Assembly: GCA_963744145.1 (NCBI GenBank)
Contig: CAVUSO010000001.1
Coordinates: 6,048,001 to 6,112,000, forward strand
From: an uncultured cyanobacterium
GTDB lineage: Bacteria; Cyanobacteriota; Cyanobacteriia; Cyanobacteriales; CAWUOF01
Length of the DNA: 64,000 nucleotides
Direction: 5' to 3'
Part shown: positions 32,319 to 52,591 of the stretch, piece after piece
Layout of the letters: the number at the start of each line of letters is the position of its first letter
Numbering within the stretch: position 1 is the first letter of the stretch
Program-made: the position numbers and the translations under genes
Notes under the pieces: generated by a model
What the model saw: the letters and a program-made list of their open reading frames with translations, nothing else
Databases searched by the model: none
What the model was told of the DNA's origin: nothing

Positions 32319-32918
32319 CTAATTCTGACTAATCCCTTTTAATAATTCAAGTCTTGCTTCTAAAATATCTGGTATTTGCAAACACTGTAACAGTAAATTT
32401 ATATCCAAATCTGGTAAAATTTCACTGCGAGAAATTTGCACATAACCTGACTCCCGCAAATGGTATAAAGACAATTGATTGTTTTGCCAAAACCAAACTT
32501 CAAAGAATAGGAAGCGACGATATTTTTCTAGTTTATTGATATTTCCACTGGTAATAATAATTTCAATTGCTAAATCAGGATGGCTCTTTTTTTCTCTTAA
32601 GTAATAAGACTCATCAGGTTCAAAAGAAACATCTTTATCTTGATCTCGCTGAGTTGTACTGCCGATCGGAAAAAATCTTATTCCTTTTTCAACAAAATAA
32701 ACTTCTAATAAAAATCTTAAAACAGATTTAATCCTTTCGTGAGTTTCCCCTAATGTCATTAGTTCGATCGTGCTATCTAAATAAGTTACCCGTAAACCTG
32801 GTGTATCGGTCAACCATATCTCTAATTCCAGAAATTGCGCCCAACTGTAATAACCAGGTAAGGTTAAACGTTGTTCATTAATTGTGGGATCAGTTTTTTT
32901 AATTAATTGGACGGTCAT
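32319..32918 (-). CDS. Uma2 family endonuclease
   Basis: GSTT....D.SFEPDESY...PDLAIEI. The start is probably the internal Met (MTVQL). Confidence 0.88.
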   Translation of the reverse strand: MTVQLIKKTDPTINEQRLTLPGYYSWAQFLELEIWLTDTPGLRVTYLDSTIELMTLGETHERIKSVLRFLLEVYFVEKGIRFFPIGSTTQRDQDKDVSFEPDESYYLREKKSHPDLAIEIIITSGNINKLEKYRRFLFFEVWFWQNNQLSLYHLRESGYVQISRSEILPDLDINLLLQCLQIPDILEARLELLKGISQN

Positions 32919-33165
32919 AATTGGAAGTTTCCGACCAAATGATACTGCTGCTATTGTGATCATTATACCAATCAGCTCAACCTAGTTCTCCAGGTATATA
33001 ATTTTTAGTGGATATATAAAGTTTTATTACAAAATCAGGTAATTTGCATAGTAAGTAAGGTTTGCACCTGATATATAGTCAGAAACTATTTTTAGACTAG
33101 GGTGAGGACACAAAAAATTTCTCAGTCTTCTCTCTATATACTAATTATTAGTTTTTGTCAATCTA

Positions 33166-33953: not shown

Positions 33954-34625
33954 TTAGCTAGGGTTGGTATCTGCATTTTCAATCGAATCCTTCTTCATTT
34001 TTACCCAAGCTCGAAAAGCTTTCATTGTTTTATTTCTACCCTCAACTTTACTGCGTTCTAAATATTTAGGAATTACCTCAACCAGAGAAAATCCTGGAAA
34101 ATGAGGACTTTCATTTACCTGAATATATTGACCGAATTGTAATACATTAATTTCTAATTTTGTCCCGTTAAAGCGCCATAGTTCTCCTACTCCTAACGCT
34201 TCATAATTGTTAAAATGTGTGCGGGAAGTAATATCAATCTCAATCGCTAAATCTGGCGGTGGATCTACAGTTAAATCAATTCGCTTCTTCCCCCGAACTG
34301 CTGCTTCATTTTCGATATAAAAACAATCATCAGCTTCGATTCCCTGATTCATAGTTTCGCTTTTAAAAGTAGTTGAACCCAAGCTCCAAAATTCCAGATC
34401 GAGTTCTTCAAGAATAGCTTTGACGAGATCGCCAATCATTATTTTACCCACTTCGTGTTCGGGTAGGGGCACCATAATTTCTAAAGCTCCCTGACTGTAA
34501 TTAATTAGACTTCCTCGTTTTTCGCCGAACTCCTCTAGCAGTTGTTCATACATCTGCCAACTGACATTATTGAGGAGAAGTTGTTGACCAGGGGGCACGA
34601 TTATTTGGTTGAGTTTGACTTGCAT
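33954..34625 (-). CDS. Uma2 family endonuclease
   Basis: VSWQ.YE.LL, GSTTFK, EADDCFYI and PPPDLAIEID.TS. Confidence 0.92.
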   Translation of the reverse strand: MQVKLNQIIVPPGQQLLLNNVSWQMYEQLLEEFGEKRGSLINYSQGALEIMVPLPEHEVGKIMIGDLVKAILEELDLEFWSLGSTTFKSETMNQGIEADDCFYIENEAAVRGKKRIDLTVDPPPDLAIEIDITSRTHFNNYEALGVGELWRFNGTKLEINVLQFGQYIQVNESPHFPGFSLVEVIPKYLERSKVEGRNKTMKAFRAWVKMKKDSIENADTNPS

Positions 34626-37319: not shown

Positions 37320-38537
37320 TTAACCCGCGATCGCACCAGTTGTCCAAGCACTTTGAAAATTAAATCCACCTGTAACACCATCAATATCCAAAATTTCTCC
37401 AGCAAAATAAAGACCCGGACATAAACGACTTTCCATTGTTTTAAAATCTACTTCTTTTAAATTAATCCCCCCACAGGTAACAAATTCTTCTTTAAAAACT
37501 CCCTTTCCCTTAATCAAAAATTCCCCTTGAGTAAGTTCCTGAATTAATTGATTTAAAACCTTATTAGATATTTCAGCCCAGCGAGTTTCTGTACCTATCC
37601 CCACCACAGCAATTAATTGTTTCCACAGACTTTGAGGGATAGAAACCGGACAACTATTCGCGATCGCACGTCTAGACAACTGAGATTTAACTGCAACTAA
37701 TTGTTGATGTAAAACTTCTAAAGTATATTGAGGTAACCAATTAATTACCAATTTAGTTTGATAATTACAATCATAGAGAACTCTTGCACCCCAAGCAGAA
37801 AGTTTCAGGATCGCAGGACCACTTAAACCCCAATGGGTAATTAATACCGGACCAGTCTGCTCTAATTTAGTATTTAATAAACGTACATTAGCATGAGGAA
37901 CAGCAACACCAGATAACCCTGCTAAACGAGGATCAGAAATAGTAAAAGTAAACAAAGAGGGAACAGGTGACTCAATCCGATGACCAAAAGATTTAGCGAT
38001 TTGATAACCAATGGGATTACTACCAGTCGCGATCAAAATGCGATCGCATTCCAACCATTCACCAGTTTTTACCTTAATCAGAAATTTGCTCTTACTTTCT
38101 CCCTTAGCAAAAGCAGGATTCACCGACACTTTAACTATTAAAATCCCAGTATAAATTTTTACTCCAGCATTTTCAGCAGTACGAATTAAACAATTTACGA
38201 TCGTACTAGAGTCATCAGTAACCGGAAACATCCTTCCATCTGCTTCCGTTTTTAAATTAACACCGCGATCGCTAAACCAAGCTACAGTATCTAGTGGTTG
38301 AAAACGACTAAAAGCACCAAGTAATGCTTTGGCACCACGAGGATAATTTTGGACTAAAAGTGCTGGTTCAAAACAAGCATGAGTAACATTACAACGTCCT
38401 CCTCCTGAAATCCGAACCTTACTCAAACATTGCTTTCCAGCTTCTAAGATTGTCACTTGAGAATCAGGATAATTCTTCGCACAATTAATTGCAGCAAAAA
38501 AACCAGCAGCACCACCACCAATTACAACTATTTTCAT
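37320..38537 (-). CDS. BaiN/YhiN (HI0933) family flavoprotein oxidoreductase
   Basis: GGGAAG, ISGGGRCNVT, VTCGGI and GE.LD.DG.TGGFNFQ.AW. Confidence 0.92.
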   Translation of the reverse strand: MKIVVIGGGAAGFFAAINCAKNYPDSQVTILEAGKQCLSKVRISGGGRCNVTHACFEPALLVQNYPRGAKALLGAFSRFQPLDTVAWFSDRGVNLKTEADGRMFPVTDDSSTIVNCLIRTAENAGVKIYTGILIVKVSVNPAFAKGESKSKFLIKVKTGEWLECDRILIATGSNPIGYQIAKSFGHRIESPVPSLFTFTISDPRLAGLSGVAVPHANVRLLNTKLEQTGPVLITHWGLSGPAILKLSAWGARVLYDCNYQTKLVINWLPQYTLEVLHQQLVAVKSQLSRRAIANSCPVSIPQSLWKQLIAVVGIGTETRWAEISNKVLNQLIQELTQGEFLIKGKGVFKEEFVTCGGINLKEVDFKTMESRLCPGLYFAGEILDIDGVTGGFNFQSAWTTGAIAG

Positions 38538-38565
38538 CTTTTTATCTGCTTTGCACCTTAGTGGT

Positions 38566-39483
38566 TTAATTAGGATCAGAACTTAAATTTTGGTGCCAAA
38601 GTAAGTCTTTTAATTGTTCTAATTCGGATTTTAATGATAAAGGTTTATAACCCAAAGCGATCGCTTTAGAAATATCCAGAGACACATCAGGTGGTCTAGG
38701 TGCAAGCATTTGGATATCTTTTTGTTTACAAGGAACTAGATTAGTGTTCTTTAACTTCAGCACTTCAACTACTAAGCGCATAAAATCATAACGGGATATG
38801 CGCTCTTTTCCTCCTAAATGTATAATTCCATGAGCTTCTTTTAAAGCTAATAATAGCCCTTGAGCAGCAGTTTTGCCACTAACTGGAGTGCGAAATTCAT
38901 CGACAAATAAATGCAATTCTTTGCCAACTCTAATCGATTCTAACATTGGTTGGAGGAAACTTTTAGCTACCAAACCACCATCACCAAACATTAGTGGCAT
39001 TCGGCACACTGCTGCTAATGGATAACGTTCTAGTATTCCAATTTCAGCCATCACCTTTTGTTCCCCATAAACACTAATCGGACAGGTGGGATCTGTTTCC
39101 CGATAGGGAGGATTTAAACCGTCAAAAACTAAATCCGTCGAAGTAAACGCAAAAGGTAGAGAATAATCTCCACAAAGTCCAGCTAAATTCACCGTAGCTG
39201 CGACATTTATTTCCTGGGATTCTTGGGGATAATTTTGACAATAATTAGGTTGAGATGCAGCAGCAGTATGAATTACAGCATCAGGTTTTATGTCGTTAAA
39301 CAAATCCTTGATTGCTTGAAAATCTCTTAGATCAACTGAAATTTGGGTAATTCCAGGAATTTGGTGAGAATGGGAAAAAAATGTGCCATATACATCCCAT
39401 TCTGGTTTTGCTACTAGACACAAATTCCATCCTAAAAAACCGCTAGCACCAGTAATTAATAATTTTTTTGCTTCTTCGCGCAC
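38566..39483 (-). CDS. RmlD-like NAD(P)-dependent reductase (dTDP-4-dehydrorhamnose reductase family)
   Basis: ITGASGFLG, STDLVFDG, YGEQK and DEFRTP. Confidence 0.88.
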   Translation of the reverse strand: MREEAKKLLITGASGFLGWNLCLVAKPEWDVYGTFFSHSHQIPGITQISVDLRDFQAIKDLFNDIKPDAVIHTAAASQPNYCQNYPQESQEINVAATVNLAGLCGDYSLPFAFTSTDLVFDGLNPPYRETDPTCPISVYGEQKVMAEIGILERYPLAAVCRMPLMFGDGGLVAKSFLQPMLESIRVGKELHLFVDEFRTPVSGKTAAQGLLLALKEAHGIIHLGGKERISRYDFMRLVVEVLKLKNTNLVPCKQKDIQMLAPRPPDVSLDISKAIALGYKPLSLKSELEQLKDLLWHQNLSSDPN

Positions 39484-39503
39484 TGCTGAAACCTATGATT
39501 GAT

Positions 39504-39668
39504 TTATTCTTCACAACGTTCAAAACTTCCTGATAAACTACCACAAACTGGACAAAACCAGTTATCTGGTATTTTTTCAAAGATAGTTCCAGGGAGGATC
39601 TGACCATCGGGATCACCGATTTCCGGATCGTATATATAACCACAGTTGGTACACATATATTTTGCCAT
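39504..39668 (-). CDS. rubredoxin
   Basis: 54 aa with [13 protein letters not shown] and [10 protein letters not shown]. Confidence 0.93.
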
Positions 39669-39842
39669 TCTAAATTCCCAAAAGTCTGGATTACTGAATT
39701 TAACAATTTCAAGTTTATCACTAAAGTCAATAAATTCAATCCTCCAGACCAAACATCAATATGGGGCAAAGTCCCAAAAGGGAATTCGGGTTGAGGTTAC
39801 TTATATGCTATGATTAACAATCTATTTACTGTTCAGCATCAA

Positions 39843-42800
39843 ATGACATATAAAATTGGGGAAGATTTGGGTCGGATTTTTGAAGTAGGGTTTAATATTG
39901 GAATTCTTGCTTATATTCAGCAACACCAAATTAAGCAGAGATTCGGTAACTTATATCTTCAGGAGTTACAACAGCTAAAATTCCCGAAGATGTTAAAACG
40001 AATTACCGATAAATTTACTGATCCAGTCCAACGGAAAATAGCAGAAACCTGGAGTACATTTTTTCTTGAGAAAGGTTTTTTATCTGGATTAAATTTTTTG
40101 GGAGAATATCTACAAGCAACAGGTTGGAATGAATCTCAGCAATTAAGGAATTTAGAAATTGTCTATTATCAATGTCGCTTTAATGGAGACAATAGTATTG
40201 GGACTTATGAAGAAAAAACAGATTCCCAATGGTTAGAAGAAGTCTTAACTCAATTTCCCAATCTGGAAGAAGAGGATCGGAGAAAAATTATCTACCAATA
40301 TACAGGAAAAGGAAAATCAGGAGAGTTTTTATATGCAGATATGCTCATGCTTTTGCGTTATCGTCGTCAATATAGAATTTTATGTGTAGATTTATCGATT
40401 TTTTCAATTAATACCAGTGCTGATGTTAAAGATTTGAATTATATTGAACTGATCCGGGAAATTTTAGTACGGGATTTAAACTATTTGCGAAGTAAGAGTG
40501 TATTTGCTAATCTTAAAATTGATGCTGGGAATTTAGGATTTGAGTTTTCTCAGGATTTGCAAAATTATTTTAGTGCTTTTAAATATGATGATAAGGAAAG
40601 TGCTAAGTTTATTCAAGCTGCTAGTTATGTTTATAGTTTTTATGGGTTTTTACAAGAACGGGGGATATTAACTGAATCTAACTCTGTGGTTTTTAATGCT
40701 GTGGGATATAGCGATCGCTCAATTAGTTCAATGTCGGTACGTCCAGAAAATTTAATCATCCTGAAGACTTGTTATGAAATTTACAAACATGATCTCAGTC
40801 CCAAGGAAATTAGTGATGCTCGACAGCTAGTTTTAAATCGGATTAAACGTAGTGCTTACACCAGTTTTGACAATGGTAAACAATTAGTCGATGCTCTGCT
40901 CACCATTACACCGAATCAAATTAATTTTATTCCTCATCAAGAAAAGATTACCAATTTTTTTAATTCTGTGGGTGAAGTTCCATCTGGATTAATTGATCAA
41001 CTTGGGTTAACGGGGACAAAAAATCTCCGACAAGTCCATACAGAAATAGTTCAAAAAGCACTTAATTCTGATCATACTTATATATTTTTAACAGGTAATC
41101 CTGGAATTGGCAAGACTACCGCGATCGCAGACTTTCTGAAATCTCCAGTTCATTTAGAGGAAGGATTCCTATTTTTCTATGCTAGTCCCAGGAAACAAGT
41201 AAATTTAGATATCATTGAGAAATTTAAAGATCCTCAAACTAACTTACTATGTAGCGATCGGATGATCTGTATTAACACTAACTATAATCTGATCCGCGAC
41301 AATGACAAACTTGGTCGCTATACTGTCCAATATGTCGCTAATCAACCGATCCAAGGTAATTATAGTGTCAATTTTGTTGATAGTCGAGTCATTCAGCAAC
41401 CCGGATATCGTTCGGAAAAACTAAATCGATCTGCAATAGATTTAATTAAACCAGCAGCACAAAAAACTAAGGGTGTTCTTAGCAGTATTAGTGAAGCAAT
41501 CTATATTTTAGTCAATCGCAATATTTCTAATAATATTGTTGCTACAGTTTCAATTCAATCTTTAAAGAAAACAGATACCAGTGATACTCTCAAACATTTC
41601 CGCAAAATCTTTCGTGACGCTTACAATCAAAGTACAGGAACAGTCATCCCCAGTCAAATGAGACAAATATCTCGTCGAATTAAGCATTTATTCATTATGA
41701 TCGACGAAATCACTGGTTCTGATGGTGGGGTAGAATTTTTAAACGGAATTAGCGAAATCTTAACTGAGTATAAATTAACCGATCCTCAATCTGGTTTTAA
41801 TACTAAAATTATAGTTGCAGATGCTTCGATTGTCGATCAAGATGTGATCTGTCAACATCTTCAGAATTCATCAGCAGAACCAGATAAAATTTATTTTCGT
41901 CGTACCTCCCAAATCGAATCTCAACCAATTACATTACAGGAATTTAGATTTAAAAACTTCCCAGCAATTGCAATTAATACTAATTCTTATCCTGCTGGAA
42001 ATTTAACCATTCAATATAAAATTTTCATCGAATCTTGTAAATTTCGGGAAAAAGCTAACCTCCCACCCAATTCTAGTTTAGAAACAAGAGTACAGTCAGA
42101 AATTTTAACTGATTTAACTACCAGATTAAAACAGACTGATGGTGAACAAGTGATCGTTTATATTCAAAATAAATCGCGATTAGCTGAATTAATTGATTAT
42201 TTGACTAAACACCTAGAAGAATTTAATAAATTTGTGGACTATTTGGAAATTCATGCTAATATCTCCGAAGTCGAAAAAGAGCAAATCGCTCAATGCAAAA
42301 ATCAAGTCAAAGTAGTTTTTATGACTGCTTCCGGTAGTCGAGGATTATCATTTCCAAAAGCTAAACATATTTTAGTAGAAATCCCTCGATTTGAAATTGA
42401 GCAAAATTTGATGGAAATTATCCAGGTAATTTATCGAGGTCGAGGTGATGATCAGATAGATAAACAAGATAAAGAGCTGGTTTTTTATTTAAGCGATCGC
42501 TCAATTTATTACGACCAAGAATCCCAGTTATCCTTACAAGAAAGCGTTTTAAATATATTAAATATATTATTAATTTTAAAAGCATCAATTATGACCAGAA
42601 TCTTTGGTTATGGGAAAATTGGTCGAGATAAATTTATGATCATCCCGATCGGAGGAAAATCTGTCTCGGGAGCAGGAGAAACATTTTCTGTTCAAATGGA
42701 AAACCTGATTAGAGAATTAAAGAAAGAACACAATCGCAATCCTAGTGATACCAAACTCAAACAAATATACACCAGTTTACAACAATTATTAAGTCGAGCA

Positions 42801-43484
42801 GAATTTACCATTAGAGATACAACGGAAACTAATTATCTCCAAATCCGGGAATCGTTCCATCAATTATTTTCCCAAAAATGTAATCCTCTTGATGGATTAC
42901 TCGAACTAGGAAAAATTCAACCAGGATATATAATAGGAGGAATATTAATAGTACCAATTACTGATAAAATCTTAAAAGAAAACTATCTTATTGCTCTCGA
43001 AGATATTATTAAGTATACCCCCGATCATATCTTTAAGCAAATGTATCTAATCAGTAAAAGTCCATCTTACCCGGACAACTTGCGATCGGCAATTAAAGAT
43101 GCAATAGAATTAGTAGAGAAACTCCGAGAACCTACTAATAAATCCCAACGATTTGAACAATATAGTCGGCATTTTGATCAATATTATGCTTTACCATTAT
43201 TCGCATTTATTGCTGCAACAGCAATGAAAAAATATTTTGCTGAAAACCCCGAAGAACCTGAAGACAAACGATTTCGGGATATTCTCGCTGGGTATATTCG
43301 TCAACTCTATCCAGTCGGTAATATTCTTCCCATTGATCATCGATATAGTGAGTTTCCTTTTGTGATATTTAGAAGTTATAATTTAGCAGAAATTAGGACT
43401 AAGATTTTTCAAGATCAATATATTTTAAATTCCTATGAATTGAATGTACTAAATTTAATTTTGTCTAAAGCAGAAGATGGGTGA
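39843..43484 (+). CDS. large SF2 helicase-like protein with uncharacterised ~400-aa N-terminal domain
   Basis: Walker A GNPGIGKT, motif Ia SPRKQVN, Walker B MIDEI, motif III ADAS, motif V TASGSRGLSFP and motif VI QVIYRGRG. The start could be 39810 or 39843. Confidence 0.8.
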   Translation: MTYKIGEDLGRIFEVGFNIGILAYIQQHQIKQRFGNLYLQELQQLKFPKMLKRITDKFTDPVQRKIAETWSTFFLEKGFLSGLNFLGEYLQATGWNESQQLRNLEIVYYQCRFNGDNSIGTYEEKTDSQWLEEVLTQFPNLEEEDRRKIIYQYTGKGKSGEFLYADMLMLLRYRRQYRILCVDLSIFSINTSADVKDLNYIELIREILVRDLNYLRSKSVFANLKIDAGNLGFEFSQDLQNYFSAFKYDDKESAKFIQAASYVYSFYGFLQERGILTESNSVVFNAVGYSDRSISSMSVRPENLIILKTCYEIYKHDLSPKEISDARQLVLNRIKRSAYTSFDNGKQLVDALLTITPNQINFIPHQEKITNFFNSVGEVPSGLIDQLGLTGTKNLRQVHTEIVQKALNSDHTYIFLTGNPGIGKTTAIADFLKSPVHLEEGFLFFYASPRKQVNLDIIEKFKDPQTNLLCSDRMICINTNYNLIRDNDKLGRYTVQYVANQPIQGNYSVNFVDSRVIQQPGYRSEKLNRSAIDLIKPAAQKTKGVLSSISEAIYILVNRNISNNIVATVSIQSLKKTDTSDTLKHFRKIFRDAYNQSTGTVIPSQMRQISRRIKHLFIMIDEITGSDGGVEFLNGISEILTEYKLTDPQSGFNTKIIVADASIVDQDVICQHLQNSSAEPDKIYFRRTSQIESQPITLQEFRFKNFPAIAINTNSYPAGNLTIQYKIFIESCKFREKANLPPNSSLETRVQSEILTDLTTRLKQTDGEQVIVYIQNKSRLAELIDYLTKHLEEFNKFVDYLEIHANISEVEKEQIAQCKNQVKVVFMTASGSRGLSFPKAKHILVEIPRFEIEQNLMEIIQVIYRGRGDDQIDKQDKELVFYLSDRSIYYDQESQLSLQESVLNILNILLILKASIMTRIFGYGKIGRDKFMIIPIGGKSVSGAGETFSVQMENLIRELKKEHNRNPSDTKLKQIYTSLQQLLSRAEFTIRDTTETNYLQIRESFHQLFSQKCNPLDGLLELGKIQPGYIIGGILIVPITDKILKENYLIALEDIIKYTPDHIFKQMYLISKSPSYPDNLRSAIKDAIELVEKLREPTNKSQRFEQYSRHFDQYYALPLFAFIAATAMKKYFAENPEEPEDKRFRDILAGYIRQLYPVGNILPIDHRYSEFPFVIFRSYNLAEIRTKIFQDQYILNSYELNVLNLILSKAEDG

Positions 43485-43853
43485 ATTAGTTATTTTTTCT
43501 CATGGAAAAATTACCAATATTGAAAAAATTGCAATTTCATGGTAAATTGAGATCAGATAGTTTTAATTTAGTAAGTGCTTGAACAAGCTTGGCGCTAAAC
43601 CTGCAACTTGGGATCACCTAAAGCGTAACTTTTTACTATCACTATGGCAATATATAATAATATTCTCGAAGCGATCGGCAAAACCCCTCTGGTTAAACTC
43701 TAATATTCTACAATTCACCGCATCAACCAATAATATCACTCATCATTGCTCCGGTCTAGGATATTATCTTGAGCATTGAAAGTGGTTATGGTAGCGGATC
43801 TTTCCGCAAGAATCGCGATTAAACCAGAGACACATCTTTCTATTCAATCCGCT

Positions 43854-44485
43854 TCACAACTTGAAAATTGCATCTATTTTACGTCTCAGGATTGCTTTCA
43901 GTAACTCAACTTTTAGAGGAGTAAATTTCGGCAACAAAATATCAGTGAAAGTATTATTTCCATCAAAGTTAAGACCTGCATCAGCATTTATAGTAGCTTG
44001 AAGCGATATTTCCTTTTTGCCGTATAAATTAGTAAGATATTGCATAGAATGTAGTCAAAGTGATAGTTAATCTCAGCATCAGCTACTCGATGTTTTAAAT
44101 ATACCTCTGCCCAAACACCAATCTCAGTTTCAAGTGGTAAACCTGCACGAACTAATAAATCACGTTCATAATGCTGTAAAGTATGATTGATAGAAGGCAT
44201 CCCCTGACTGTCAAACTTAGCTGCAAATAATCGACGTGGACAGACAACCCAAATATCCTCACCTGCTTGAATTGAACATACACCAGGTATAACTTCTGTG
44301 ACATCACTATTAAAGTAGTGAGTTAGAGGTTCTTGTGGTGTGAGCTTAATTTTGGTTTGATAGCGATTACCACCACCATCGCAAATTACACCCATAAATG
44401 GACATTGATGAGATTTTCGGCTTCTCTCCACCTCTTCACTGCGATCATCTACGGGAAAACCGAATAGTTCAAAAATTCTAGGCAT
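43854..44485 (-). pseudogene. NotI-family type II restriction endonuclease, internally deleted
   Basis: ELFG, a Cys4 motif (CPF....C, GVCS, VCPRR) and EV.L....FDY are present. The frame closes soon after FDYIL, and a second frame (43854-44045) may be the C-terminus. It lies directly downstream of a C5 MTase. Confidence 0.7.
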
Positions 44486-44515
44486 AAGTAATTATTGATT
44501 CGAGCAGAATAGGAT

Positions 44516-45646
44516 CTAAACGCTAAGAAATTTTTTCTTTAAGGATTCATTAATAACTTTTCCTGGGGTGATAAATTTAGCGATCGCTTGAGCTATAGCA
44601 TAAGCAACAGGTGGAGGAACGGAATTAGCAACTTGACGATGCTGATCTAAATACCGAACTCTACCTGAACGACCTCGAATCGGACCTTTTAGAAAGTAAT
44701 CATCAGGGTATCCATGAATCCGCATATATTCCCGTGGAGTTAGGTATCTATCTTCAACAGGATGAAAGAAAATTTCTCCACACCTGAGAGTTAGTGAAGG
44801 TTCAGAAAAAGAAAGCCGACGAAACTTCGTTGTATCCTTTTTTGTGAGCTTACCTCTCTGACTCTCTGGGAGATGTAATTCTTTAGCTAAAAAAGAACCT
44901 TCAGGTACTCCATGAATACGCCTTCTATCTCCTGCTGGTGTAATGTCTATATGGCTATCTTCAGGTTGGTTATCTTTATTGTTTGATGGACTACCTAATC
45001 CGTTTAAAGCTTGACCAACTGTAATATAGGGCTGAAGAGGAAATAAGGAAAATTGAGGGTCTGCTTTTCCATGAGTTGGTAATGGGAAATTGAAGTGGCC
45101 ATCTATTCTTGTTGCAACGATAAAAACCCTTTCTCTGGCTTGAGCTACGCCATAATTTGCCGAATTTATAGTTTCTATGTTTAATTGATAACCTAGTTCC
45201 CTGAACTGACTTACAATAGCTCTGCAAACACCACCACAACCAGACTCATCGGGAGCTGTCAATATACCTTTAACTTGCTCAATAACGATTACTTTAGGTT
45301 TTAAAACCCTAGCAAATCTAATAAATTCAAAGATAAGTAAGCCTCGCTCATCATTTAATGAAGCCCGTTTTCCAGCCTGAGAAAAACTCTGACAAGGACT
45401 ACCACCAAATAGCAAATCTAATTCACCTATCTGTAAGTCTAAATCTCTCATTAGTTGAGATGGGTTAATTTGTTTTATATCCTTTTCAAAAAGGACAGTT
45501 TTCGTGTTTTCTCTTTCAATAGCACTTTGTAAAGTTTGGCAACAGTGAGGAGCTATTTCAATGCAAGCTTGGATTTCAAAACCAGCTTGACGAACACCAA
45601 TATCCATTCCACCTGCACCTGAAAAAAGAGATATAGCAGAAAACAT
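44516..45646 (-). CDS. DNA (cytosine-5) methyltransferase
   Basis: LFSGAGG (I), GGSPCQSFS (IV), EQV in place of ENV (VI), Q.RER (VIII), R.LTPRE..R..GYPD and ANSVPP (IX/X). Confidence 0.93.
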   Translation of the reverse strand: MFSAISLFSGAGGMDIGVRQAGFEIQACIEIAPHCCQTLQSAIERENTKTVLFEKDIKQINPSQLMRDLDLQIGELDLLFGGSPCQSFSQAGKRASLNDERGLLIFEFIRFARVLKPKVIVIEQVKGILTAPDESGCGGVCRAIVSQFRELGYQLNIETINSANYGVAQARERVFIVATRIDGHFNFPLPTHGKADPQFSLFPLQPYITVGQALNGLGSPSNNKDNQPEDSHIDITPAGDRRRIHGVPEGSFLAKELHLPESQRGKLTKKDTTKFRRLSFSEPSLTLRCGEIFFHPVEDRYLTPREYMRIHGYPDDYFLKGPIRGRSGRVRYLDQHRQVANSVPPPVAYAIAQAIAKFITPGKVINESLKKKFLSV

Positions 45647-45905
45647 AAAAAAATCAGGGTTGATAATAAAGATATTGTTTTTTATTATATATCATTCCGT
45701 GATGCGATCGCGATTCCAGTTTATGGGGCAGGCGATCGCTTTTCTTGAGAATACCAGGGAGAACGATCCTTGCTCATGCTTCGCCCCTCAATAAACATTC
45801 ACATTATATTGATGGCAGTCAATAACGATTAATGGACTGGCGCTATAGGCTGAGTTTTTGCCATAATAGATCAGATGTAATTCCTAGTTTAAGAGTGTAG
45901 TAGCT

Positions 45906-46142
45906 ATGACTGAGTTGCTTGAACGTGCAATTAACCAGTTGAAGACTTTGCCTACGGATGAGCAAGACGCGATCGCGACTCGTCTCTTGGCAGAAATGGA
46001 AGAAGAGCAGACATGGAAAACTAAGTTTGAATCTACAACTGATGAGCAGTGGGATCGGATAGCCCAGATGGTGCGTCAAGAAATTGCTGTTGGCGATATC
46101 GCTCCTTTATCCGACGTTTTCCCCTCTGAGTCTCAACCATGA
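45906..46142 (+). CDS. putative type II antitoxin
   Basis: MTELLERAI..LK.LP..EQDAIA..LL.E...E..W...F pattern, with an ATGA overlap onto a toxin-like stub. Confidence 0.65.
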   Translation: MTELLERAINQLKTLPTDEQDAIATRLLAEMEEEQTWKTKFESTTDEQWDRIAQMVRQEIAVGDIAPLSDVFPSESQP

Positions 46143-46252
46143 AATCAAGTGTCACGAAAGCATTTCGCCAGAAACTCGATCAGCTTCCTACATCAATTCA
46201 AAAGCAAACTGCTAACCAGCAGCCTAAAACGACAACGAGCGATCGTTCGTAG
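46139..46252 (+). pseudogene. truncated RelE/ParE-like toxin
   Basis: MKSSVTKAFRQKLDQLPTSIQKQ resembles a RelE-superfamily N-terminus. It stops after 37 aa. Confidence 0.6.
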
Positions 46253-46329: not shown

Positions 46330-46641
46330 TCACTCATCAAAAGGTTCTTCAAAAAGCGCTTCCAAATTGCGGTATCCACTAACAACTCGTAAAATCTCAA
46401 TACCCTCTTCAATTGGCAGATAGAAAATCAGGTAATCATCAACAGGAAAACTTCGCAATGAAGGAAAAAGCTGATCACGTTGACGCCCCATGTTAGGAAA
46501 ACTTGCTAAAGTCTTACACTTTTGATTGACTTTTTTCAAGAAACGCTCTGCTGGCTCAAAACCACTATTGTCAGCAATCAAGTCGATAATGGTTTCAATA
46601 TCTCGACTAGCTGGGACAGTAAACCGACAAATATTACTCAT
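46330..46641 (-). CDS. parE: ParE/RelE family toxin
   Basis: A..DIE.I, FPNMGRQR, LRSF....YLIFY and IEILRVVSG.R. Confidence 0.85.
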   Translation of the reverse strand: MSNICRFTVPASRDIETIIDLIADNSGFEPAERFLKKVNQKCKTLASFPNMGRQRDQLFPSLRSFPVDDYLIFYLPIEEGIEILRVVSGYRNLEALFEEPFDE

Positions 46642-46907
46642 AAACCAGCTTTTTGGCGATGTCGTTCTAGTTTCTGTTGGAGTTGGGAGAAAACTATTTC
46701 TCCATCAATTACTTCACCCCGTTCCGAGGCTTCAACACCAATCATAATTTCCCTTCTCAATTCTTCAAATCGTCCTTTGTAAATGCTTTCCCGTTCTTCT
46801 AAAAGCCTAATTCCTGCTATAATCATTTCTTCAGCAGAAGCATACTTACCGCTTTCTACTTGACTTTGAATAAACTGCGAAATTTCTGAACCTAACGATA
46901 TATTCAT
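46638..46907 (-). CDS. parD: ParD family RHH antitoxin
   Basis: MNISL...FI...V.SGKY.SA.E.I..G.RLLEE, with an ATGA overlap with parE. Confidence 0.85.
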   Translation of the reverse strand: MNISLGSEISQFIQSQVESGKYASAEEMIIAGIRLLEERESIYKGRFEELRREIMIGVEASERGEVIDGEIVFSQLQQKLERHRQKAGL

Positions 46908-48492: not shown

Positions 48493-48543
48493 TTGCGCCA
48501 TAGGTTAGACAATGGAACTAAGACTAGACATGAGATTCAAGCG

Positions 48544-49260
48544 ATGAAGAGGAGTCGAGTTAATACCGCAGAGTTAATCCGCAGACAGATTGAGGAAAGG
48601 GGAGAAGCCTACTGGCGACATTCTGATTTCTCCAATTTGCCCCCAACTGCGGTGAGTAAAACTCTCTCCCGACTAGCAGAAGAAGGAGTTTTGGAGCGAG
48701 TCAGCAAGGGACTTTACTACCATTCGCGTCAGACTCGATTTGGTCGGAGCCGTCCATCTCAAAGCGATATCCAAAAGCTACTCACAAAACAAAATTTGCA
48801 TCCAGCGGGGCTGACTGCTGCTAATTTACTAGGATTTACGACTCAAAATACAATCCAAGGTGAGTTTGCCACCTCAGCGAATAGTGTCCCTCGCACCATC
48901 ATCGGCGATCGCGCCAGAGTCCACACCCGCAGACCCCAAACATGGAACAACCTAGAAGCTACTGATGCAGCAATACTTGATTTCTTAAGATCTAGAGGGA
49001 ATTTGAGTGAGTTGTCTCCAAAAGAGACTAAGCAACGGTTACTGGACTATTTTCGATCAAGCGATCGCTTTGAACGGTTAGTAGCAATCGCAGATGAGGA
49101 ACCACCGCGAGTGCGAGCTATACTGGGAGCGATCGGACAAGAACTAGGTCAAAGTCTAAAAAAATTAGAAAAACTTAGAAATAGCTTAAATCCCTTATCT
49201 CGGTTTGATTTCGGTAAGTTCAGCAACCTTCGCTATGCCAAAGAGTGGCAAGGAAAATGA
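48544..49260 (+). CDS. AbiEi-like type IV TA antitoxin / wHTH regulator (DUF6088-like)
   Basis: AVSKTLSRL.EEG.LERV.KGLYY and G..AANLLGFTTQ. Confidence 0.75.
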   Translation: MKRSRVNTAELIRRQIEERGEAYWRHSDFSNLPPTAVSKTLSRLAEEGVLERVSKGLYYHSRQTRFGRSRPSQSDIQKLLTKQNLHPAGLTAANLLGFTTQNTIQGEFATSANSVPRTIIGDRARVHTRRPQTWNNLEATDAAILDFLRSRGNLSELSPKETKQRLLDYFRSSDRFERLVAIADEEPPRVRAILGAIGQELGQSLKKLEKLRNSLNPLSRFDFGKFSNLRYAKEWQGK

Positions 49261-49323: not shown

Positions 49324-49683
49324 ATGAGCGGCATTAATCGCCAACTAACACGAGATCCCAGAAGTAGTTTATTTGAAAAACATCTTCCGGGTACATCACA
49401 AGTGGAACGACTGTTAAGGAAAGAGGGAAAAGCTCATGTTTTTAATGACAGAACTACTCTAGATGCAGTGGAGGAGGCTATTATAGAGAGAGGGTATCTA
49501 ACAGGAGTTGAGGATAAAATAGATAGCTATGAACGTTATGGACTCTATTTTGATGATCCAATCGGCTATCAAATTAGAGCAGATGGTAGTCAAATACCCC
49601 TTTATTACGCTGAAATAAAAATTCTTAAAGGAACAGATACATACCATGTTATCCCACGCACTAGACCTCGCCGAACAAATTAA
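49324..49683 (+). CDS. small putative RNase toxin (Ntox50-like pattern; resembles DUF6972)
   Basis: KHLPG near the N-terminus, IG, and C-terminal YHVIP. It overlaps a small acidic downstream gene. Confidence 0.55.
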   Translation: MSGINRQLTRDPRSSLFEKHLPGTSQVERLLRKEGKAHVFNDRTTLDAVEEAIIERGYLTGVEDKIDSYERYGLYFDDPIGYQIRADGSQIPLYYAEIKILKGTDTYHVIPRTRPRRTN

Positions 49684-49968: not shown

Positions 49969-51387
49969 GGTTCTACCGAACTATCTATGTAAAACTAACT
50001 AGCAAAATGCCAAGTTAAAATACTTCTGAGCTGAAAATTATCAAAATTCCTAAAGCCATAGCCACGCCTTTTAATCAATTTTAACTTATTATTAATTCCT
50101 TCGACTACTCCTTGAGTAGTTCGGTGATCGAAATAGGCAATAATTTCTCCAATCCATCGGATAATTGTCCCACAACTATGAGGGAAATAATCTTGAGCTT
50201 CTTTTAACCAATCAGCGAAATTAAATATTCCTTCTACCCAATCTTTACTGGACTCATAAATATTTCTAAATTTTTCTTTGAGCTCATGCATTTTTCCTAA
50301 TTTTGGAGCAACTTTTTTAACTAATTTAAGTCGTTGAGATTCATCATCATTTAAATCTTTCTCATTTTTAAGTAAGACATATTTACTCTTAGTTAATCCG
50401 CCTAATATTTGCTCTTTTTTTTGGTTATTTTTCAATGGCTCTGCGGTTCTTTTCGTTTTCCTTCTTTCTTGATCTAGTTCATCCTGTACTTGCTTCATTA
50501 CATGAAATCTATCGGCGATTACTTCTGCTTGAGGTATCAATTTTTCGGCGATATTTTTATACATTTGCCAGAGGTCAATACTTACTTCTTGGATTTGCCC
50601 CAAAACCTCTTCTCCCCAAGCTTCTAGGTATTTTTCTATCTCGGCTTTTTTGCGTTTTTCGATAATTCCTAATACAATTCCTTGGTCAATATCTATTAAC
50701 ACTACATAATAATTTTTTGCCCTTTTACTACGGCAATTTCATCGATTCCTAACCGCTGTAAATTTTCGGGCTTTTTTTTCATTAATTCTGCGCCTAATTC
50801 TTTTAACATTGTCTCTACTTCTTGCTCGCTAAATCCGTACCGTATCGCCACGTTTTTTATGTCACTTGACAAAACTTCCTTAATAATTTTATTTCTTAAT
50901 CTTTCAGTATAATTTCTTTTCTTCTTCACTAAATTTAACTCTTCACTAAATTTGTGGCCACATTGGTCACATCTCATTTGACGACGATTGACTTTTAAAT
51001 ATATTTGTTGTTCACCAAAAGCCAAATCTCTTACTACATACCAATGATTTTGATGTAATTTATCTGTGAGGCTTTCACAACAAGGACATTTAACTTTTAA
51101 TTCTCGTTTTTCTAGTCGTAAAAATATCCCGATCCCTTCTTGAAATTGATAATCTACTACTTTAAATTCTTGACTATTCAGCAATGAAGTCATTAGATGA
51201 AGTTGAGAAGAAGATGCCATAGCTGTCAATTTTTACTTAGATGTACTTAATTATTCTAATCCAATTTAAACATAAAAATCGCCCAAAGTCAATCACGTCA
51301 GTAATTTTTCAGATATAAATTAATTATTTAATTGGGAGTTTTACGAGCTAATAACTAATATTTTTACATAGATAGTTCGGTAGAACC
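49969..51387 (-). mobile_element. ISL3-family insertion sequence, 1419 bp
   Basis: Perfect 26-bp terminal IR GGTTCTACCGAACTATCTATGTAAAA. 8-bp TSD TTAAAATC at 49961-49968 and 51388-51395. Confidence 0.95.
49995..51220 (-). CDS. ISL3 transposase, frameshifted at an A6 run near 50713-50718
   Basis: Zinc finger CPCC...CDQC, LGIDE, VSIDLW, IADRFHV and EGINNKLK.IKRRGYGFRNF. One extra A gives 408 aa. Confidence 0.9.
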
Positions 51388-51814: not shown

Positions 51815-52591
51815 ATGGTCCAAAGTCTTGATCCTACCCTATTACCCCCTCCTTTTCCCGATCATACCCAACTCCCTGAATCCGACGGCACCTTCGTGAA
51901 AAACTTTCAAGAACATCCCCAATGTATCTTGCTGACCGACTCCTTGGAAACTACCCTACAAACTCTCCATCCAGATGGTCAATATGCGATCGGACAAGAT
52001 AGTGGGATATACTGGCGGGAAACTGAGCCTCCGGAACGGGGAGCGGAAGCACCGGATTGGTTCTATGTTCCTAACGTTCCACCCCTATTAGACGGTCAAG
52101 TTCGTCGTTCCTATGTGATCTGGCGCGAATATAGTGTGCCCTTAATTGCGATCGAATTAGCCAGTGGAAATGGTGCCGAAGAACGAGACTATACTCCCCT
52201 ATCTCGTTCATCAGAAAGGAGCAATCAAAAACCTGGGAAGTTTTGGGTATATGAGCAGATTATTCGGATTCCTTACTATGCCATATATATCATCAAAACT
52301 AGGGAATTGGAAGTTTATAACTGGGTAAATACTCGTTATCACCGTTTGCAACCGAATCAGCGCGGACATTATCCGATCGACCGGATGGGAGTAGAATTAG
52401 GAGTGTGGGAAGGTAGCTATCAAAATCAGACTAATCATTGGTTACGTTGGTGGGATAGTCAAGGTAATTTGTTGCTCACTGGTAGTGAACAAGCTAAACT
52501 TGAACGTCAACGGGCTGATCGCGAACAGCAACAGAAAGAACGATTGGCTGCTTATTTGCGATCGCAAGGAATCGATCCTGATCTGATTTGA
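51815..52591 (+). CDS. Uma2 family endonuclease with C-terminal coiled coil
   Basis: LPESDG, APDWFYVP, RRSY, IELAS and WLRWWD..GNLL. Confidence 0.9.
   Translation: MVQSLDPTLLPPPFPDHTQLPESDGTFVKNFQEHPQCILLTDSLETTLQTLHPDGQYAIGQDSGIYWRETEPPERGAEAPDWFYVPNVPPLLDGQVRRSYVIWREYSVPLIAIELASGNGAEERDYTPLSRSSERSNQKPGKFWVYEQIIRIPYYAIYIIKTRELEVYNWVNTRYHRLQPNQRGHYPIDRMGVELGVWEGSYQNQTNHWLRWWDSQGNLLLTGSEQAKLERQRADREQQQKERLAAYLRSQGIDPDLI

Follow-up and report, generated by a model that had tools for sequence, protein, structure and literature searches.

In a 64,000-nucleotide stretch of DNA from an uncultured cyanobacterium (contig CAVUSO010000001.1, positions 6,048,001 to 6,112,000; hereafter, the window), the list of open reading frames (ORFs) and its translation contain a single ATG-started ORF at 39810-43484 on the forward strand that encodes a 1224-amino-acid (aa) protein, P0001, which probably is the effector subunit of a two-gene module that pairs an Argonaute-like protein with a helicase-nuclease. 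P0001 can be divided into three parts, namely, a putative lysine-shifted RecB/Cas4-like nuclease domain, a compact superfamily 2 (SF2) core and a C-terminal domain without a recognised family. An earlier reading of the window, made from the letters alone (the original prediction), had described the gene as an orphan and a candidate single-gene defence system encoding a divergent nuclease-helicase. The latter part of this description largely holds, given that a nuclease-like domain is joined to an SF2 helicase and that the top structure matches of this domain belong to the RecB/Cas4 family, whereas the gene turned out to be neither an orphan nor a single-gene system.

Judging by its motifs, P0001 is an SF2 helicase. 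The translation contains GNPGIGKT (aa 429-436), SPRK (459-462), MIDEI (630-634), ADAS (670-673), SRGLSFP (843-849) and QVIYRGRG (872-879), preceded by YADMLMLL (175-182), ILCVDLS (190-196) and KFIQAASY (266-273), all pointed out in the original prediction, and its placement of the ATPase core onset near aa 430 agrees with these positions. Such a set of helicase and nuclease motifs is far beyond chance. The core comprises Walker A (G432-x-G-K435-T), motif Ia (S459-P-R461), a Walker B of the DExx type (D632-E633), motif III (D671-A-S673), motif V (R844-G845) and motif VI (Q872..R876.R878). All 177 full-length homologues retain the Walker A GxGKT, D632, DAS671-673, R844-G845 and Q872/R876/R878, and 176 of them E633. 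Pfam Helicase_C is matched at aa 766-876 (E 8.5e-9, 36.1 bits versus a cut-off of 23.5) and, apart from weak P-loop matches around aa 407-462, is the sole Pfam family in P0001. In the C-terminal region, the residues invariant across the alignment (A6) include T929, R930, G933, P946, G1043 and P1174. Searches with P0001 retrieved no PADLOC family (PADLOC-DB v2), nothing meaningful from NCBIfam and no PDB chain by sequence, and neither a conserved four-cysteine cluster nor a DinG-type one was found among the 177 homologues. The original prediction had also excluded type I HsdR, type III Res and Cas3, and these exclusions stand: P0001 has no Pfam or PADLOC match to HD-domain, ResIII/HSDR_N-type HsdR/Res or Cas models, no hsdM/S or mod gene is adjacent, the neighbouring restriction-modification (R-M) genes are of type II, and no repeat array is present within 38500-46200.

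The N-terminus appears to adopt a RecB/Cas4-like nuclease fold, although the match to this fold is modest. The predicted model of aa 1-420, built from a 34-sequence alignment, has a pLDDT of 83.7 and a pTM of 0.78. Foldseek alone yielded no match at E<=0.001 with this model; the beta-carbonic anhydrases that headed its list, none of them at that threshold, were dismissed as noise. When the N-terminal domain was compared with all of 48,161 chains, the top rows were ACE1, an Argonaute-associated Cas4-family nuclease (6.2), the AddB nuclease domain (5.9), the Dna2 nuclease domain (5.6) and MGME1 (5.1), with RecB and AdnA also among the best matches. PD-(D/E)xK nucleases occupy 10 of the 11 top rows, and structure prediction and search, the check proposed for this region at the outset, has its best matches in the RecB/Cas4 family. 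In the model, E25 lies in the first helix, D177 just precedes the strand 178-184, D/E194 ends the hairpin strand 187-196, and K266, Q269 and Y273 are on the helix 262-283. D177, K266 and Q269 are present in all 177 homologues, Y273 in 176, and position 262 is K in 174 and R in 3; at position 194, 170 homologues have D and the other 7 have E. These residues stay invariant or nearly so down to homologues of about 20-24% identity.

Judging by these counts, the QxxxY signature (motif IV) of the RecB/Cas4 clade is present as Q269xxxY273. By contrast, the canonical combination of a motif II aspartate with a motif III (D/E)xK is incomplete: D177 and D/E194 are kept, but position 196, the site of the motif III lysine, is S in 165, A in 6, T in 3 and G in 3 of the 177 homologues and never K. 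As an observation, the original prediction that serine takes the place of the lysine, or that the lysine has been relocated, thus holds. The relocated catalytic lysine could be K266, K262 or K229; K266, which lies one helical turn ahead of Q269xxxY273, might act as the substitute. The four-cysteine iron-sulfur staple of the Cas4 type was not found in the N-terminal domain, where the only cysteines conserved at all are C122 (73%), C192 (76%) and C321 (89%).

The gene belongs to a conserved pair. Among the first 19 loci fetched with their flanks, the only neighbour common across loci is an ORF of about 1000 aa located just upstream on the same strand, which was recognised in 17 of the 19 (14 by BLAST, L015 and L031 by hidden Markov model, and L030 by similarity to L031). 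A wider sample consisted of species loci, the best 80 of 480 confirmed relatives, and every one of these whose record gives a taxon is cyanobacterial. Of the 80, 67 have the partner immediately upstream on the same strand, 61 of them with a gap of at most 300 bp, often an overlap; in the remainder, the partner is in another arrangement (5 loci), a contig end truncates the locus (5), or the partner is missing despite at least 3 kb of upstream sequence (3). The partner was found in 42 of 301 cyanobacterial genomes sampled across the phylum, and all 40 genomes with a helicase match of at least 44% identity, a grouping of our own choice, also hold it. Moreover, a natural fusion, P0160, has residues 1-983 matching the partner (35% identity, E 1e-164) and a helicase N-terminal domain starting at residue 1021; it is encoded on a 6674-base metagenome contig, and its chain of 2028 aa ends at the contig end. 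The conserved partner, its adjacency, the fusion and the co-occurrence overturn the notion of a single-gene system. The pairwise identities of the helicase and of the partner correlate across 15 genomes (r=0.86; 0 of 5000 Mantel permutations), for which shared descent alone would suffice. Beyond the pair, neighbourhoods are not conserved across loci.

The pair is also present on plasmids. Some of these are predicted-conjugative cyanobacterial plasmids, and one, from Acinetobacter, carries a diverged form of the pair with a DUF4011 protein and HigBA as neighbours. On the latter, the helicase profile scores 3.5e-222, the N-terminal domain profile 1.5e-53, and the partner profile 5.5e-25 against the upstream 1198-aa protein.

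By sequence, the partner is featureless: Pfam and PADLOC returned nothing for it and PADLOC none of note for its homologues, a PDB profile search was empty, and at E<=10 not one of 30 partner proteins matches a PIWI family of Pfam. Its fold is more telling. A predicted model of aa 560-998 (439 aa, 37-sequence alignment; pLDDT 80.9, pTM 0.85) gave 212 PDB matches at E<=0.001 in Foldseek, the best being Aquifex aeolicus Argonaute (2f8s_A, 1.5e-8), and all of the best 50 of the 212 are Argonaute or PIWI proteins. On the strength of these matches, the partner is Argonaute-like, and its C-terminal 440 aa or so are predicted to form a MID-PIWI module. The conserved residues of the MID part are Y624, R644, Q680 (120/124), the invariant G681, K691 and K705 (121/124 each), and those of the PIWI part are R729, D732 (123/124), E747 (120/124), Y841, D846 (124/124), Y906 and H944 (124/124). 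The strand that we take to be equivalent to the Argonaute 'RDG' strand, on the basis of the secondary structure of the model, reads YIAKAP. Judging by strand order in the model, the second aspartate position of the DEDX tetrad looks unoccupied, which makes a canonical tetrad doubtful.

P0001 is far from an orphan. A word-indexed search with the protein returned 646 homologues at E<=0.001, the best 120 of which are nearly all full-length, share 56-64% identity with it and come, wherever the source is named, from filamentous cyanobacteria. Matches were found in 22 of 41 related genomes and in 48 of the 301 cyanobacterial genomes, and a search of species-representative genomes confirmed the 480 relatives. 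Used by itself, the N-terminal stretch of 420 aa retrieved 128 clusters among 1.84 billion representatives, and nearly all of these are either short fragments or proteins of about 1150-1460 aa in which the domain is N-terminal. The viral contigs and phage genomes searched yielded no relatives. Decayed copies of one or the other gene occur in six genomes (G104, G179, G225, G233, G307 and G318). A second subtype of the pair, with a helicase of about 1270-1340 aa (about 24-28% identity) and a partner of about 1056-1070 aa, is found in G005, G020, G098, G117, G237, G260, G303 and G080 (e.g. loci L030 and L031), together with the main type in G098 and G237.

In the genome under study (G000), the two genes are separated. 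The search of homologue neighbourhoods for a PIWI-like partner, suggested by the original prediction, did find one, yet the intact 998-aa partner gene of this genome (G000:C1:5221485-5224481, reverse strand) is about 866 kb away from the window. By tblastn, there is no remnant of the partner upstream of the helicase gene and none of the helicase downstream of the partner gene. Given that the pair is adjacent in G001, the nearest relative sampled, which belongs to the same family, the split probably is secondary. The pair is unlinked in another genome, G008, as well. Because both genes are intact yet unlinked, the system would have to work in trans. The regions upstream of the two unlinked genes share no motif beyond one 11-mer. 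Both genes are AT-rich compared to the chromosome: the GC content of the helicase gene is 33.1% versus 39.4 +/- 2.6% for 3.6-kb chromosome segments, placing it in the lowest 0.7%, that of the partner gene is 34.0%, and both fall within the most AT-rich 0.7-1.3% of such segments. HIP1 sites occur in the gene at near-genomic density, which suggests long residence.

What could such a pair do? DdmDE and ApsAB, both of which eliminate plasmids, and the predicted pPIWI-RE restriction systems share with the pair, as far as they are described in the sources cited below, a design in which an Argonaute-fold sensor is combined with an SF2 motor of about 1200 aa and a PD-(D/E)xK nuclease, and by this token we propose guide-dependent recognition followed by recruitment of a helicase-nuclease, with the DdmDE mechanism taken as the template for the model. 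The MID pocket of the partner would anchor a short nucleic-acid guide, and the loaded partner could then recognise complementary foreign DNA, such as a plasmid or another invading replicon, and recruit or load the helicase-nuclease onto the displaced strand. The latter would translocate with ATP and cut single-stranded DNA through its N-terminal nuclease domain. We infer a defence role for the pair, in which the two proteins would bind each other, make use of a guide and direct nuclease activity at a plasmid or phage target. A conflict role is favoured by the patchy distribution, gene decay, plasmid carriage, AT-richness and variable neighbourhoods beyond the pair. Tentatively, and as a serious possibility rather than a probable one, we suggest that the pair represents a fourth, as yet unnamed lineage of helicase-nuclease immunity guided by an Argonaute, with sequences independent of those of DdmDE, ApsAB and pPIWI-RE. 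Its nuclease would be N-terminal, RecB-like and lysine-shifted, and the lineage would be common in filamentous cyanobacteria, carried into Proteobacteria by conjugative plasmids and functional even with its genes hundreds of kilobases apart; in cyanobacteria lacking RecBCD, the helicase-nuclease may make the guides of its partner. A literature search found no paper describing the cyanobacterial pair, which is not proof that none exists.

Several observations weigh against a guided defence module. Enrichment in defence islands, whose lack had been named beforehand as grounds for refutation, is not significant: PADLOC matches at <=1e-10 occur in 23 of 147 flanking ORFs versus 13 of 147 ORFs in control regions taken from these genomes (p=0.11 by Fisher's test), and a generic kinase, an ATPase or a desulfurase accounts for many of them. 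Some genera carry the gene almost throughout (9 of 10 genomes in g33 and 7 of 8 in g45), which fits a stable cellular function too, and unlinked pairs such as those of G000 and G008 are unusual for defence operons. Given the absence of the motif III lysine, the N-terminal domain could be inactive. Furthermore, no sequence link to pPIWI-RE or to any solved structure was found, and DdmD/DdmE and ApsA/ApsB are set apart from the pair by descriptions, architecture and database searches rather than by direct sequence comparison.

An unlikely alternative is that the pair is a very divergent, rearranged variant of the RNA-guided pPIWI-RE systems, with the restriction endonuclease (REase) fused to the N-terminus of the helicase, that targets transcribed invading DNA via RNA-DNA hybrids instead of relying on DNA guides in the manner of DdmDE. 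The same three activities, an REase-fold nuclease, an SF2 helicase and a PIWI protein, are combined in both; canonical pPIWI-RE islands occur in the same phylum (12 of the 301 genomes); and by language-model features, the pPIWI-RE cluster is the nearest named family for two partner proteins (score 0.95, with 210-211 of 256 features and, for the two proteins, 12 and 16 of 30 hits). Profile-profile comparison by hhalign with the canonical proteins from eight or nine cyanobacterial islands aligned the Walker A/Ia stretch with the pPIWI-RE helicase over 45 columns, a weak signal (probability 37.5%) and the sole one. Against these points, the same comparison gave probabilities of 0.4% for the partner, 0.1% for the N-terminal domain versus REase and at most 0.2% half by half. 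The Pfam models RNaseH_pPIWI_RE and MID_pPIWI_RE do not match the partner, and the only above-cut-off PF13032 match in G000, at C1:3538207, is not at the partner locus; as mentioned above, the 30 partners match no PIWI family either. The gene order is reversed compared to the one described for pPIWI-RE (PMC3702460), and the DinG-type cysteine cluster is missing. More doubtful still is a cellular role, instead of dedicated immunity, in DNA repair or recombination in cyanobacteria without RecBCD/AddAB, or in generating guides for other Argonautes. The matches of the N-terminal domain to AddB, Dna2, MGME1, RecB and AdnA, the near-universal presence in some genera, the HIP1 density with the long residence it suggests and the lack of significant enrichment of defence neighbours are all compatible with such a role, as is the report that cyanobacteria mostly lack RecBCD/AddAB (PMC12094033). 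However, a repair machine would hardly be expected in just 48 of 301 genomes with several copies decayed, on plasmids that are conjugative or, in Acinetobacter, carry DUF4011 and HigBA alongside, in strongly AT-rich genes with no conserved surroundings beyond the pair, and with an Argonaute-like partner, which is typical of conflict systems.

The N-terminal domain might also be a degenerate, non-catalytic nuclease fold that binds DNA or docks the partner, in which case P0001 would be a translocase and the cutting would be left to the PIWI partner or to host nucleases. We deem this quite improbable: the near-invariance of E25, D177, D/E194, K266, Q269 and Y273 down to about 20% identity is hard to explain without catalysis, and the canonical DEDX tetrad of the partner is itself doubtful on the topology of the model. 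Least of all do we expect P0001 to act as a stand-alone defence protein requiring no partner, as originally envisaged; this is very improbable. The gene is alone and intact in G000 and G008, and 3 of 75 assessable loci lack a nearby partner, but the 40 of 40 co-occurrence, the adjacency in 67 of 80 loci, the natural fusion and the conservation of the pair across phyla speak otherwise, and G000 retains an intact partner elsewhere. A two-gene module with P0001 as its effector remains our preferred reading.

Table 1. Domains of P0001 and neighbouring features of the window (window positions).
Feature	Position	Strand	Basis
Whole gene P0001: nuclease-helicase, 1224 aa, probable effector half of two-gene module	39810..43484	+	Full-length homologues, 45-64% identity
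N-terminal domain, aa ~13-330: putative RecB/Cas4-like PD-(D/E)xK fold with helical insert at aa ~197-261	39846..40799	+	Predicted model
E25, candidate motif I	39882-39884	+	E in 173/174 homologues having a residue there
Putative active-site block: D177, D194-L-S196, K262, K266, Q269xxxY273	40338..40628	+	Counts in 177 homologues
Helical linker, aa ~331-420, between nuclease-like domain and ATPase core	40800..41069	+	Model secondary structure, lower conservation
SF2-type ATPase/helicase core, aa ~421-900	41070..42509	+	Pfam Helicase_C and invariant or near-invariant motifs
C-terminal region, aa ~901-1224	42510..43481	+	Conserved; no Pfam/NCBIfam/PADLOC match
PDC-M03 A and B: two ORFs that overlap, for a HipA_C-like kinase of 316 aa and a HIRAN-containing protein of 263 aa	34601-36339	-	PADLOC E 1e-114, 9e-93
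rmlD-like gene, divergent, upstream	38566-39483	-	ORF map
Upstream intergenic region: usual partner site, partner missing; presumed promoter	39484..39809	+	ORF map
REase_II-like ORF, 165 aa, convergent	43988-44485	-	Weak PADLOC match, 4e-5
C5 cytosine methylase, 376 aa, convergent	44516-45646	-	Pfam 5e-60
ParE/ParD pair	46330-46907		
AbiEi-like/DUF6088 gene	48493-49260		
DUF6972 gene	49324-49683		
ISL3 transposase split into two ORFs	49995-50702, 50702-51229		

The surroundings of the gene (Table 1) fit the earlier description of a location beside an R-M locus in an island rich in toxin-antitoxin genes, with the C5 methylase, the REase_II-like ORF, ParDE and the AbiEi-like gene all lying downstream. 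The small REase and the methylase form a type II R-M pair (43988-45646, reverse strand), and, together with ParDE, the AbiEi-like gene and ISL3 (to 51229), a mobile or defence-type stretch. Upstream, the intergenic region contains only consensus promoter-like sites (39510-39539 and 39700-39727), an HI0933-like gene is also divergent, and the pair of PDC-M03, a PADLOC candidate system, is 3.5 kb away from the helicase gene. Three genes of Uma2-family 'putative restriction endonucleases' lie within 20 kb (32319-32963, 33954-34625 and 51815-52591). The window contains no tRNA gene, and around the gene there is no Rfam match and no long flanking repeat. Elsewhere in this genome, G000:C1:3538207-3539205 (L052:11594-12760) encodes an RNase H domain of the canonical pPIWI-RE type, matching PF13032 at E 4e-47; the ORF is only 388 aa long, with no REase or helicase upstream, and probably is a remnant of a classical pPIWI-RE island. 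At other loci, Ser/Thr protein kinase genes resembling PADLOC PD-T4-6 are found no more than 8 kb from the pair in 4 of the first 19 (L017:1-820, L022:10670-12055, L024:1-1586 and L031:1238-2959) and near the pair on the Nostoc N6 plasmid (L174:15566-17855); such neighbours could be due to chance because cyanobacteria have many kinases. In a Microcoleus locus (G314:C11:52291-61951, L118), the helicase gene is flanked on one strand by the partner and by another, diverged copy of it that is 47% identical to the query, in the order partner, helicase, second partner.

Argonaute systems with a helicase-nuclease, that is, DdmDE and ApsAB, are recent additions to bacterial immunity and are mainly antiplasmid. 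If our interpretation is correct, this class is widened by a family of reversed architecture that Pfam, PADLOC and PDB sequence searches miss, with members numbering in the hundreds. Its hosts include Nostoc, Anabaena, Microcoleus, Planktothrix and Limnospira, cyanobacteria that matter ecologically and are genetically hard to transform, where the pair could account for some of the barriers to plasmid transfer. It would also provide a new example of a guide-bearing PIWI protein handing DNA over to a motor nuclease. For annotation, the lesson is that a 'lone helicase' can be one half of a split system with a distant partner.

The pair resembles DdmDE, ApsAB and pPIWI-RE in design but, by the features on which these are defined, does not appear to belong to any of them. 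As outlined in the two preprints, DdmE is a 'long-C' prokaryotic Argonaute (pAgo) and DdmD a helicase-nuclease with an N-terminal DinG/XPD-like SF2 helicase (K55) and a C-terminal nuclease (D1100 and K1102, the canonical lysine), which combine DNA-guided recognition, recruitment of the helicase-nuclease and cutting of single-stranded DNA (bioRxiv 10.1101/2024.05.10.593530, 10.1101/2024.07.20.604412). The likeness to the systems of Vibrio cholerae and Lactobacillus casei, as portrayed there, extends to two genes, an Argonaute-fold protein and an SF2 helicase of about 1200 aa with a PD-(D/E)xK nuclease, and to a mobile, accessory distribution. However, P0001 has the reverse order (nuclease-like domain at 13-330, ATPase at 421-900) and a shifted lysine, and the present partner is about 1000 aa long and encoded upstream. 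At the sequence level, the searches gave no link to DdmD or DdmE, with no PADLOC-DB v2 family for the helicase and no PDB sequence match for either protein. The DdmDE structures presumably are included in the PDB copy searched, and DdmE is absent among the matches listed for the partner model.

ApsAB, an antiplasmid system of Escherichia coli ST38, is described as a nuclease/helicase with a divergent Argonaute-like protein, in a family said to reach cyanobacteria (Nat Commun 2024, PMC11096173). In that account, the helicase of ApsA is central (Walker A 218-222), its nuclease is C-terminal (K1435) and apsB lies downstream, an arrangement which the present pair does not have, and ApsB carries the MID-type Y-x3-K..QG..K motif and is reported without a recognisable PIWI fold (PMC11096173). 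The conserved Q680, G681, K691 and K705 of the present partner recall this motif, whereas its clear PIWI fold sets it apart. Walker A and motif VI are about 440 aa apart in P0001 compared to about 930 aa in ApsA as published. The cyanobacterial ApsA-like entries in the supplement are of about 1300 aa, with Walker A near residue 45, and are accompanied by ApsB-like proteins of about 770 aa (PMC11096173). Neither the Walker A string of the P0001 family nor the Trichormus accessions were found in those ApsAB supplements that were searched, and the cyanobacterial ApsAB-like proteins listed therein are a different family.

With pPIWI-RE, as far as its proteins are described, the pair has in common an SF2 helicase, a nuclease of the REase fold and a PIWI protein that is divergent and about 900-1100 aa long. 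The pPIWI-RE islands are portrayed as separate genes in a strictly conserved REase-helicase-PIWI order, with a DinG-type helicase bearing a Cys-rich insert (Burroughs, Iyer, Aravind 2013; PMC3702460), whereas the present pair has two genes, PIWI first, with the nuclease fused and no Cys cluster. We observed the canonical order in 8 cyanobacterial islands; the intact ones encode an REase of about 500 aa, a helicase of about 1140 aa and a PIWI-RE protein of about 1000-1090 aa. APACE1 couples a cyanobacterial long-A pAgo to the Cas4-family nuclease ACE1, which is described as a stand-alone protein of about 280 aa with D-DxK, a 4-Cys iron staple and no helicase (Mol Cell 2025, PMC12094033). By comparison, the N-terminal domain of P0001 lacks the lysine at that position and the four cysteines, and, by sequence, the partner is no long-A pAgo. 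The helicases RecB, AddA and Dna2 belong to superfamily 1 and Cas3 has an HD nuclease, whereas P0001 has an SF2 Helicase_C, no HD match and no array. P0001 resembles RecB, AddAB, AdnAB and Dna2, in which a helicase motor is coupled to a nuclease of the RecB family and the latter degrades the strand that has been unwound; as with Cas3, a partner bearing the guide would recruit the motor.

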